Shown: positions 49,645 to 49,683 of the stretch, in pieces
Numbering within the stretch: the first letter of the stretch is position 1
How the letters are laid out: every line of letters begins with the position of its first letter
DNA from: Clostridia bacterium
Lineage (GTDB): Bacteria > Bacillota > Clostridia > Oscillospirales > CAG-272
Length of the DNA stretch: 64,000 nucleotides
Direction of reading: 5' to 3'
Assembly: GCA_017416205.1 (NCBI GenBank)
Contig: JAFQDC010000107.1
Coordinates: forward strand, 11,345 to 75,344
The notes under the pieces: model-generated
Told to the model about the DNA's origin: nothing
The model's database searches: none
Seen by the model: the letters and a program-made list of their open reading frames with translations, nothing else
Made by a program: the position numbers and the translations under genes

Positions 49645-49677
49645 CAATTATACAAAATTTCCATTTTGTATAATTGG
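49645..49677. repeat. perfect 14-bp inverted repeat (CAATTATACAAAAT ttcc ATTTTGTATAATTG) at the integration site
   Basis: Read directly from the sequence. The right arm is part of the att core. Each arm carries an extended -10-like TGTATAAT on one strand. Confidence 0.9.
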
Positions 49678-49683
49678 GTATAT
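49656..49683. repeat. attL core (28 nt)
   Basis: AATTTCCATTTTGTATAATTGGGTATAT. Matches 54535-54562 at 27 of 28 positions. Confidence 0.85.

Follow-up and report, generated by a model that had tools for sequence, protein, structure and literature searches.

How does a phage that carries no recombinase gene of its own come to lie integrated in a bacterial chromosome? This question is raised by a 64,000-nucleotide (nt) stretch of contig JAFQDC010000107.1 from a Clostridia bacterium of the Oscillospirales (assembly GCA_017416205.1), which we analyzed as a whole and call the window, and in which a 4.9-kb inovirus-like prophage lies between two copies of a 28-nt direct repeat. What we observe is the repeats, the phage attachment site (attP) junction in free circular phage, the lack of a recombinase gene in the phage, and the dif-like properties of the insertion site across related bacteria. 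Our reading, which we hold to be very likely, is that an integrase-less inovirus integrated at the dif site of this bacterial clade through a chromosomal Xer-type recombinase encoded elsewhere in the genome.

A 28-nt direct repeat bounds an inovirus without a recombinase gene

The two repeat copies lie on the plus strand at positions 49656-49683 (AATTTCCATTTTGTATAATTGGGTATAT) and 54535-54562 (AATTTCCATTTTGTATAATTGAGTATAT), 4879 nt apart from start to start, and are identical at 27 of the 28 positions; the sole mismatch, at position 22, is a G in the left copy and an A in the right one, exactly as an earlier note on this DNA had described. The repeat has two matches in the window at up to three mismatches and none in 100 shuffles, and the sequence identity between the flanks of the left and right junctions (attL and attR) breaks off exactly at the edges of the 28-mer on both sides.

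We took as marks of an inovirus a pI/Zot-type ATPase, a rolling-circle replication initiator (Rep), small hydrophobic coat proteins and a genome of about 5-10 kb. By its sequence the element is assigned to the inoviruses (Tubulavirales), since it encodes an HUH-type Rep (49936-50793, plus strand; Pfam PF23343 REP_ORF2-G2P, E = 4.8e-9; phrog_3419; the HUH motif, HFH, is visible), a hydrophobic 62-amino-acid (aa) candidate major coat protein (51117-51305, plus strand; proposed from its translation and gene order, with no family match) and the pI/Zot-type morphogenesis ATPase that is the hallmark of these phages (51357-52031, plus strand; Pfam Zot, E = 1.1e-9), and has a 4,864-bp circular form. 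The claim that it encodes no recombinase was borne out: none of its ten open reading frames (ORFs) matched a recombinase or transposase family in Pfam or PHROGs, the only proteins recognized being Rep, Zot/pI and an XRE-type repressor, and the unassigned ORFs encode small or membrane proteins. No tRNA gene was found within 10 kb of the insertion.

The free circular phage carries the repeat once

An identical Rep protein is encoded on 14 public contigs, and among them a ruminant-gut scaffold of 98.5 kb carries the insertion just as the window does. Three Rep-identical contigs, of 5005, 5005 and 4919 nt, have end overlaps of 141, 141 and 55 nt; as these lengths equal the assembler's k-mer, the three contigs represent circular 4,864-bp genomes. 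They run across the attP junction, reading ...GTACGAAGCTTCGTACTTAA-TTTCCA-TTTTGTATAAT-TGGGTATAT-AGGTTCC..., and carry the G allele at position 22 (...TAATTTCCATTTTGTATAATTGGGTATATAGGTTCC...), which confirms the earlier assignment of G to the phage. Circular variants with another left-hand sequence start to match the host at the same base.

The 28-mer occurs just once in the free circle, which makes the repeat an att core rather than a duplicated target. Because direct repeats flank the element, one might take them for a chance match or for a target site duplicated by a transposase; the attP junction of the circular phage, where the same 28 nt stand once, refutes a duplication, and the element encodes no transposase while the shuffled sequences gave no match, so that this explanation retains practically no probability.

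Register of the recombination core

The predicted functional core is ATTATACAAAA-TTTCCA-TTTTGTATAAT, an 11-6-11 arrangement in which TTTCCA would be the exchange region. We set this register because the central hexamer is the only segment touched, wholly or partly, by the repeats of all prophages found at this type of site (see below). It lies 9 nt to the left of the parse proposed earlier, whose 11-6-11 layout was centred on TGTATA; that hexamer falls inside a binding arm, and its apparent central position is an artefact of where the identity between phage and host ends. The inference that strand exchange occurs to the left of position 22 is supported as well.

At attL (49647-49674) the core is intact, with the host arm ATTATACAAAA, the centre TTTCCA (49658-49663) and the phage-supplied arm TTTTGTATAAT; the arms form a perfect inverted pair, the one supplied by the phage being identical to the host arm. 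The hybrid site attR (54526-54553) consists of a degenerate phage arm CTTGCACGTAA, which mismatches the host arm at 5 of 11 positions, the same centre (54537-54542) and the host arm TTTTGTATAAT. In both the circular and the prophage form attP reads CTTGCACGTAA-TTTCCA-TTTTGTATAAT, and it also copies a conserved outer flank of the host (TGxGTATAT). Accordingly divided, the left repeat copy comprises 2 nt of an arm, the centre, the right arm and the TGGGTATAT flank with the phage allele G, while the right copy includes the host 'ATATAC..CAA' flank TTGAGTATAT with the host allele A.

The perfect palindrome with 14-bp arms on the host side of attL is present as described earlier, except that it ends at 49676 rather than 49677 (14-4-14, 49645-49676). 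When the host sides of attL and attR are joined, the reconstructed bacterial site (attB) is a perfect 16-4-16 palindrome, CTCAATTATACAAAAT-TTCC-ATTTTGTATAATTGAG. The proposal that this palindrome is the real recognition structure stands in the form of two inverted duplex arms, for which the hairpin that was also suggested is not required. A search for the unoccupied attB of the same species by exact CoaX look-up gave occupied sites only; the 39-nt reconstructed attB had no metagenome match, and a shorter pattern matched only another species (L141).

Among the sequences of the window attP comes closest to E. coli dif (18/28), one arm being identical to the E. coli XerD arm at 8 of 11 positions. 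The 11-6-11 layout fits the corrected register, yet the two arms are identical to each other. No convincing B. subtilis-like or E. coli-like dif was found elsewhere in the window, where the best B. subtilis match (19/28) lies in a coding region at 47525.

The site type is widespread in Clostridia

We scanned 185,579 species genomes for TTATACAAAA-N6-TTTTGTATAA with fixed arms and obtained at least 120 loci (L009-L128), with one site locus per assembly among those listed; with flanking A or T the extended core pattern is [AT]TATACAAAA-N6-TTTTGTATA[AT]. Among the listed loci, 117 of 120 belong to Clostridia of the Oscillospiraceae, Acutalibacteraceae, Ruminococcus, Butyricicoccus, Agathobaculum and Anaeromassilibacillus type, and the three others are a tandem array in a Spirochaetia genome, a Flavobacterium and a member of the Gastranaerophilales. 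About 40 different centre hexamers occur in them, TTTGCA being the commonest. When the loci are oriented, the consensus tATAt.cAA-TTATACAAAA-T[GAC][AC]A[AT][AG]-TTTTGTATAA-TTGAGGGGAG is asymmetric, with the G-rich flank TTGAGGGGAG in about 117 genomes. The literature that we searched held nothing relevant on the arm sequence or on dif in Ruminococc*, and the genome-wide dif tables of Kono et al. (2011) contain few Clostridia and none of the present clade.

We also considered the palindrome as an operator of coaX, the gene next to it in the window, and rejected this candidate, as only 4 of about 117 loci have coaX beside the site. The Spirochaetia array (L033, 1256-1460; chromosome OZ244590.1) has a 41-nt period with the palindrome arms in every unit, and appears unrelated to dif. 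A 147-aa protein without a Pfam match, encoded in the window at 47430-47873 on the minus strand, lies within a few kb of the site in 17 of the L009-L128 loci, and it also adjoins the empty site in L141 (328-700).

GC skew and polar motifs converge on the site

If the site were dif, it should mark the replication terminus, and the earlier note had proposed to compare its position with the terminus by GC skew. In the 64 loci that extend 1.5 kb or more to either side, oriented by the site, GC skew changes from plus to minus across the site in 47 and from minus to plus in 1 (binomial p = 3e-13), and long ORFs are convergent in 27 loci and divergent in 3.

We then measured the strand polarity of motifs in 855 kb of flanking sequence, leaving out the 40 nt nearest the site on either side. 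Among heptamers, strand polarity was strongest for AGGGGAG (104:7) and AGGGAAG (170:17), and their combination AGGG[AG]AG aims at the site in 274 copies against 24 (92%). The E. coli consensus of the FtsK-orienting polar sequences (KOPS), GGGNAGGG, and the B. subtilis SpoIIIE recognition sequence (SRS), GAGAAGGG, also point towards the site (76:5 and 19:1, respectively). That this polarity merely reflects ribosome-binding sites or gene orientation was rejected: control motifs, Shine-Dalgarno-like sequences and G-runs, are only 59-72% polar versus 92-95%, and two of the copies in the window are antisense to genes.

Left of the site, the host DNA of the window has 13 plus-strand copies of AGGG[AG]AG and one minus-strand copy; beyond the prophage, on its right, the ratio is 0:5 (Fisher p = 5e-4). 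The copies run from 6417 to 48289 on the plus strand and are found at 49638 and from 55512 to 60060 on the minus strand, so the polarity flips between 48289 and 49638, at attL; the last plus-strand copies, at 46573 and 48289, are the two that are antisense to local genes. The motif marks the site more sharply than do the GC skew and the gene orientation of the window, which switch 6.9 kb before it. We count that skew and gene-orientation switch, 6.9 kb off as it is, among the supporting points as well.

The conserved G-rich host flank that adjoins the site (49636-49646 in the window, minus strand, reading TTGAGGGAAGGG; also in L009-L128) is itself one copy of AGGG[AG]AG, and it points away from the site. 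This outward flank could give directionality to a symmetric dif, or could act as a docking or stop signal for FtsK/SpoIIIE.

The prophage has its own copies of AGGG[AG]AG, at 49698, 49703, 50671, 51330, 51593, 54208 and 54213 on the minus strand and at 54227 on the plus strand. They lie antisense to the phage genes, at a density about five times that in host DNA. Such prophage copies aim at the regenerated intact dif, 7:1 in the window and 13:1 in the pool of five prophages that also includes those of L132, L069 and L138.

A Xer-type recombinase gene often adjoins the site

In 44 of the 120 loci listed, a gene for a Xer-type tyrosine recombinase of 320-350 aa starts within 300 nt of the site, and where both sides could be assessed xer adjoins the site in 30 of 73 loci (41%). 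No more than one such gene is seen beside the site. ORF analysis recovered 36 of the linked recombinases, which form one blastp cluster and combine a Phage_integrase domain with a Xer-type SAM-like N-terminal domain. Their scores stay below the curated cut-offs of all the models compared, namely XerC (218 bits against 335), XerA (209 against 220), XerD (204 against 330) and XerS (153 against 267); the nearest solved structures are E. coli XerD and archaeal XerA, and the XerH structure is the weakest match. With scores under the XerS and XerA cut-offs and XerH as the weakest match, the linked recombinase is best regarded as a separate Xer-type lineage and not as an ortholog of a named single Xer. 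The symmetry of the arms suggests a single recombinase rather than a XerC and XerD pair. A proposed hallmark of systems with one recombinase, XerS/difSL and XerH/difH among them, is that the recombinase gene is linked to dif (PMC5357621).

In loci with xer on the downstream side of dif, 15-60 nt separate the arm from the start codon of xer (L009, L036, L059, L064, L094, L096, L100 and others). Each arm holds a perfect TATAAT, and the G-rich flank is similar to a Shine-Dalgarno sequence. Given these three features, the xer promoter probably overlaps dif, which would allow autoregulation.

In the window, neither a scan of 20 host ORFs nor tblastn across the whole window found a Xer or integrase gene. 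As no Xer homologue lies within the 64 kb, the recombinase would be unlinked from the site in this genome.

Is the site the dif of the clade?

The skew switch, the convergence of KOPS-like motifs and the linkage to xer are three independent tests, and by all three the site is identified, at the level of sequence, as the dif of the clade. One may instead suppose that the palindrome is a promoter or operator, or the att site of some other widespread element whose integrase, the adjacent 'xer', was borrowed in trans by the phage. The perfect TATAAT in each arm, the frequent position of the G-rich flank 5-30 nt upstream of a start codon and the presence of a recombinase next to the site in just about 41% of assessable loci would all fit such a view. 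Against it, the neighbours of the site are unrelated housekeeping genes (coaX in 4 loci only), the matches listed comprise one locus per assembly in 117 species, and the linked recombinase scores best against the XerC, XerA and XerD models and has the Xer-type SAM-like N-terminal domain; moreover, neither a skew switch nor KOPS-like convergence is expected for a promoter or an ordinary att site. We regard this explanation as improbable.

Several points nevertheless weigh against the identification of the site as dif and of a host Xer as the enzyme. In the window itself the switch in GC skew and gene orientation lies 6.9 kb from attL, at about 42.5-42.8 kb, between a gene on the plus strand (41808-42770) and one on the minus strand (42789-44924). 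The window holds no Xer gene. The arms match the E. coli XerD arm at just 8 of 11 positions, and the whole host site matches B. subtilis dif at fewer than 18 of 28. The scan that gave the 120 or more loci used fixed arms, so that the count of one locus per assembly applies to sites with these arms among the loci listed, and these genomes may also have a separate canonical dif. Finally, the attB is a reconstruction, since no empty site of the same species turned up.

Other integrase-less phages at the same type of site

A survey of related prophages for the same core, which the earlier note had called for, found the same type of site at other loci. The pI protein has 135 relatives, mostly on contigs of 4.2-5.4 kb; IMG/VR, scanned with pI and Rep, gave none. 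At least four further integrase-less inoviruses (L129, L132, L069 and L138) lie between a perfect and a degenerate copy of this site type. The L129 prophage (4.7 kb, with a Rep_OBD initiator and a pI 43% identical) is bounded by ACTATACAAAA-TGAATA-TTGTCGAAGAA and the perfect ACTATACAAAA-TGAATA-TTTTGTATAGT+TGAGGGGA, and a chromosomal xer is found 570 nt beyond the perfect site. The 5,086-bp prophage of L132 (pI 45% identical) has a 27-nt repeat made of the G-rich flank, the other arm and the centre, so that its attP is the mirror image of that in the window, with xer about 700 nt from the degenerate junction. In L069 a 5.6-kb element with Zot and Rep_OBD lies between a degenerate and a perfect copy, followed immediately by xer, and in L138 a prophage with a Rep_trans initiator is flanked by a perfect variant of the site and by a degenerate copy that shares just the 3 centre bases beside the common arm. 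The repeats thus contain the whole centre in L129, L132 and L069, and only 3 bases of it in L138. Some phages copy the opposite arm and flank, the mirror-image L132 and L069 carrying the G-rich flank in their attP. A circular relative (L133, pI 84% identical) has GCTATACAGAA-TTTGCA-TTTTGTATAAT-TGGCTGTAT, whose flank matches that of the host L073. No integrase is encoded by the L129, L132, L069, L138 and L133 phages.

These phages bear on the enzyme. The earlier note had argued that integration must use either a host enzyme, such as Xer at dif, or the HUH Rep of the phage. By the second route Rep would nick and join at the palindrome, possibly as a hairpin, in the manner of adeno-associated virus (AAV) Rep or of IS200/IS605-type Y1 transposition. 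The element does encode an HUH-type Rep, and the perfect host palindrome could extrude a hairpin. However, the initiators of the phages at this site type belong to three unrelated families, PF23343, Rep_OBD/RepB and Rep_trans, which disfavours integration by Rep; in addition, inverted arms around a 6-bp spacer are the layout of a tyrosine recombinase core, the site lies beside xer and at the terminus, and it is the spacer, in whole or in part, and not a nick site that is contained in the repeats common to phage and host. We consider the Rep route very improbable. The Xer alternative is the half of the earlier argument that is upheld, by the terminus position, the KOPS-like convergence, the xer linkage and the other inoviruses.

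Not all relatives use the dif-type route. The L130/L131 phage, a related inovirus with a Rep_trans initiator and a 4.74-kb free form, is integrated between 211-nt direct repeats (L130 7164-7374 and 11937-12147), and no clear copy of the dif-type site was seen in it or in the P0039 phage family (L134-L137).

Short elements of 0.55-3.4 kb, bounded by a second copy of an arm and the centre beside a perfect dif, were seen in L102 (1202-1980), L082 (2607-3500), L016 (4076-5204), L020 (5874-6450) and L113 (1200-4625); the last encodes a PF23343 Rep like that of the window phage and a truncated integrase-family ORF. They may be decayed IMEXs (integrative mobile elements exploiting Xer) or satellites. 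In L132 a second degenerate dif-like sequence, ATTAGACACAA-AAAAGC-TTATGTATAAT (10896-10932), lies 41 nt past the perfect site and is possibly the scar of an earlier integration.

Proposed mechanism of integration

The element has the features of an IMEX and is classed here as one: it has no integrase of its own, is inserted at a dif-type site, has an attP that mimics dif, and is flanked by dif-like sites. From these sequences we infer which enzyme would catalyze the reaction, how strand exchange would be ordered and whether it could be reversed. In the model, the double-stranded replicative form of the phage carries an attP that mimics half of the host dif, the latter having perfectly inverted arms with the 'ATATAC' flank on one side and the G-rich flank on the other. 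The host Xer-type recombinase would synapse the duplex attP with dif and exchange strands at the borders of TTTCCA. Since the centre is identical in both partners, both strand pairs could be exchanged, and the reaction would be reversible in principle. Integration would leave an intact dif at attL, beside the G-rich flank of the host, and a crippled hybrid site at attR; with an intact dif at attL, dimer resolution would be preserved.

The classical precedent for Xer-dependent integration of an inovirus is CTXφ (PMC9226527), whose attP is a folded single strand and whose integration, with one strand pair exchanged, is irreversible. The present phage would likewise have a single-stranded stage, and in L138 only half of the centre is shared with the host site, which would be compatible with a single strand exchange. 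A folded attP requires two inverted dif-like sites, whereas the prophage and its circular relatives have one; a search for a second inverted dif-like site in them, at up to two arm mismatches, found none. Moreover, duplex attP as it stands matches the centre in full and has one perfect arm. We give the CTXφ route little probability and retain exchange on duplex attP as the preferred reading.

A wider picture may be sketched, tentatively and with considerable doubt. In Oscillospirales-type Clostridia a homomeric Xer might act on a perfectly palindromic 13-6-13 core and take its directionality from the outer flanks rather than from the arms; the inverted AGGG[AG]AG flank could dock or stop FtsK/SpoIIIE beside one recombinase pair; TATAAT and the Shine-Dalgarno-like flank might let an adjacent xer regulate itself; and inoviruses might exploit the site through two mirror-image attP designs, each composed of the centre, one arm and one flank, with their own motifs aimed at the regenerated dif.

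Other features of the prophage and its flanks

Next to attP the prophage has a 51-aa ORF (49732-49887, plus strand), which is called as a gene in the identical contigs and has no family match. Downstream of the pI/Zot gene, three plus-strand ORFs of 139, 339 and 93 aa (52372-54045), with signal or transmembrane segments, a gene order kept in relatives and no family match, are likely minor coat or adsorption proteins. A divergently transcribed XRE/Cro-C1-type repressor of 70 aa, as called on the identical contigs, is encoded at 54241-54453 on the minus strand (Pfam HTH_26, E = 1.6e-9; phrog_8). Upstream of it an operator-like palindrome, TGCAAGAA(A)..TTCTTGCA, occurs twice, at 54464-54484 and at 54511-54531, and the latter copy overlaps the degenerate arm of attR. 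Circular variants with identical Rep have another palindrome, GTACGAAGCTTCGTAC, at the position where the window has the operator-like one. This difference suggests swapped immunity regions and hints that binding of the repressor may be linked to excision.

An 18-nt C-rich direct repeat (GG.GT..TCCCCTTCCCT) stands at 49692-49709 and 51319-51336, upstream of two blocks of phage genes, and contains the reverse complement of AGGG[AG]AG. In the host flanks, a type III pantothenate kinase gene (48804-49595) and an aldose 1-epimerase gene (54606-55658), both on the minus strand, lie to the left and the right of the prophage, respectively.

Comparison with known Xer systems and implications

That inoviruses exploit Xer is already well known in Proteobacteria. 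CTXφ of Vibrio cholerae is likewise an inovirus with an HUH Rep, Zot/pI and a repressor but without an integrase, and integrates at dif via the host Xer; its folded single-stranded attP is formed by two inverted dif-like sites, whereas the present phage has one. The IMEXs TLCφ and VGJφ of the same species, which use a double-stranded attP, also lack an integrase and insert at dif via the host Xer (PMC9226527). TLCφ is the closest in design, with one non-canonical attP arm, a centre matching dif and an intact dif regenerated at one junction (PMC9226527). Unlike in these two, the host here is a Gram-positive Clostridia bacterium, the target arms are perfectly inverted, the conserved outer flanks are copied, and no XafT-like activator was detected in the Pfam scan of the phage ORFs.

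Among single-recombinase systems, the XerL/dif of Legionella came to light by the same logic, in that a dif mimic on the mobile element LME-1 exposed an unrecognized dif/Xer at the terminus (PMC9765430); it differs in recombinase lineage, site sequence and phylum, and was verified genetically, while the present system is known from sequence alone. XerS/difSL of streptococci and lactococci and XerH/difH of Helicobacter and Campylobacter resemble it in the linkage of dif and recombinase, found here in 41% of assessable loci. However, the arms of difSL and difH are asymmetric, whereas those described here are perfectly symmetric; the linked recombinase is not the equivalog of XerS or XerH, and the xer of the window genome is not beside the site. 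Archaeal XerA/dif also has an 11-6-11 layout with near-palindromic arms and a single recombinase, and the XerA model gives 209 bits here against its cut-off of 220; XerA is reported to be independent of FtsK, whereas the KOPS-like convergence found here suggests coupling to FtsK/SpoIIIE, and the host here is a bacterium.

In the literature that we searched we found no description of Xer-exploiting inoviruses in Clostridia, of this dif sequence or of a dif/Xer module for the clade, which is no proof of absence. To our knowledge, all well-studied Xer-exploiting phages infect Proteobacteria, and the inoviruses of Gram-positive gut Clostridia are almost unstudied. Our analysis would extend the Xer-exploiting strategy to Gram-positive gut Clostridia and offers a concrete candidate dif, with a candidate cognate Xer-type recombinase, for a large clade of medical and agricultural importance that includes Ruminococcus, Acutalibacter, Butyricicoccus, Agathobaculum and their relatives. 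The site may serve as a marker of the replication terminus in fragmented metagenome-assembled genomes, as a rule for bounding cryptic prophages that lack an integrase, and as a natural single-copy integration target for engineering anaerobes that are hard to manipulate, and a symmetric dif would provide a system for asking how strand exchange is ordered.

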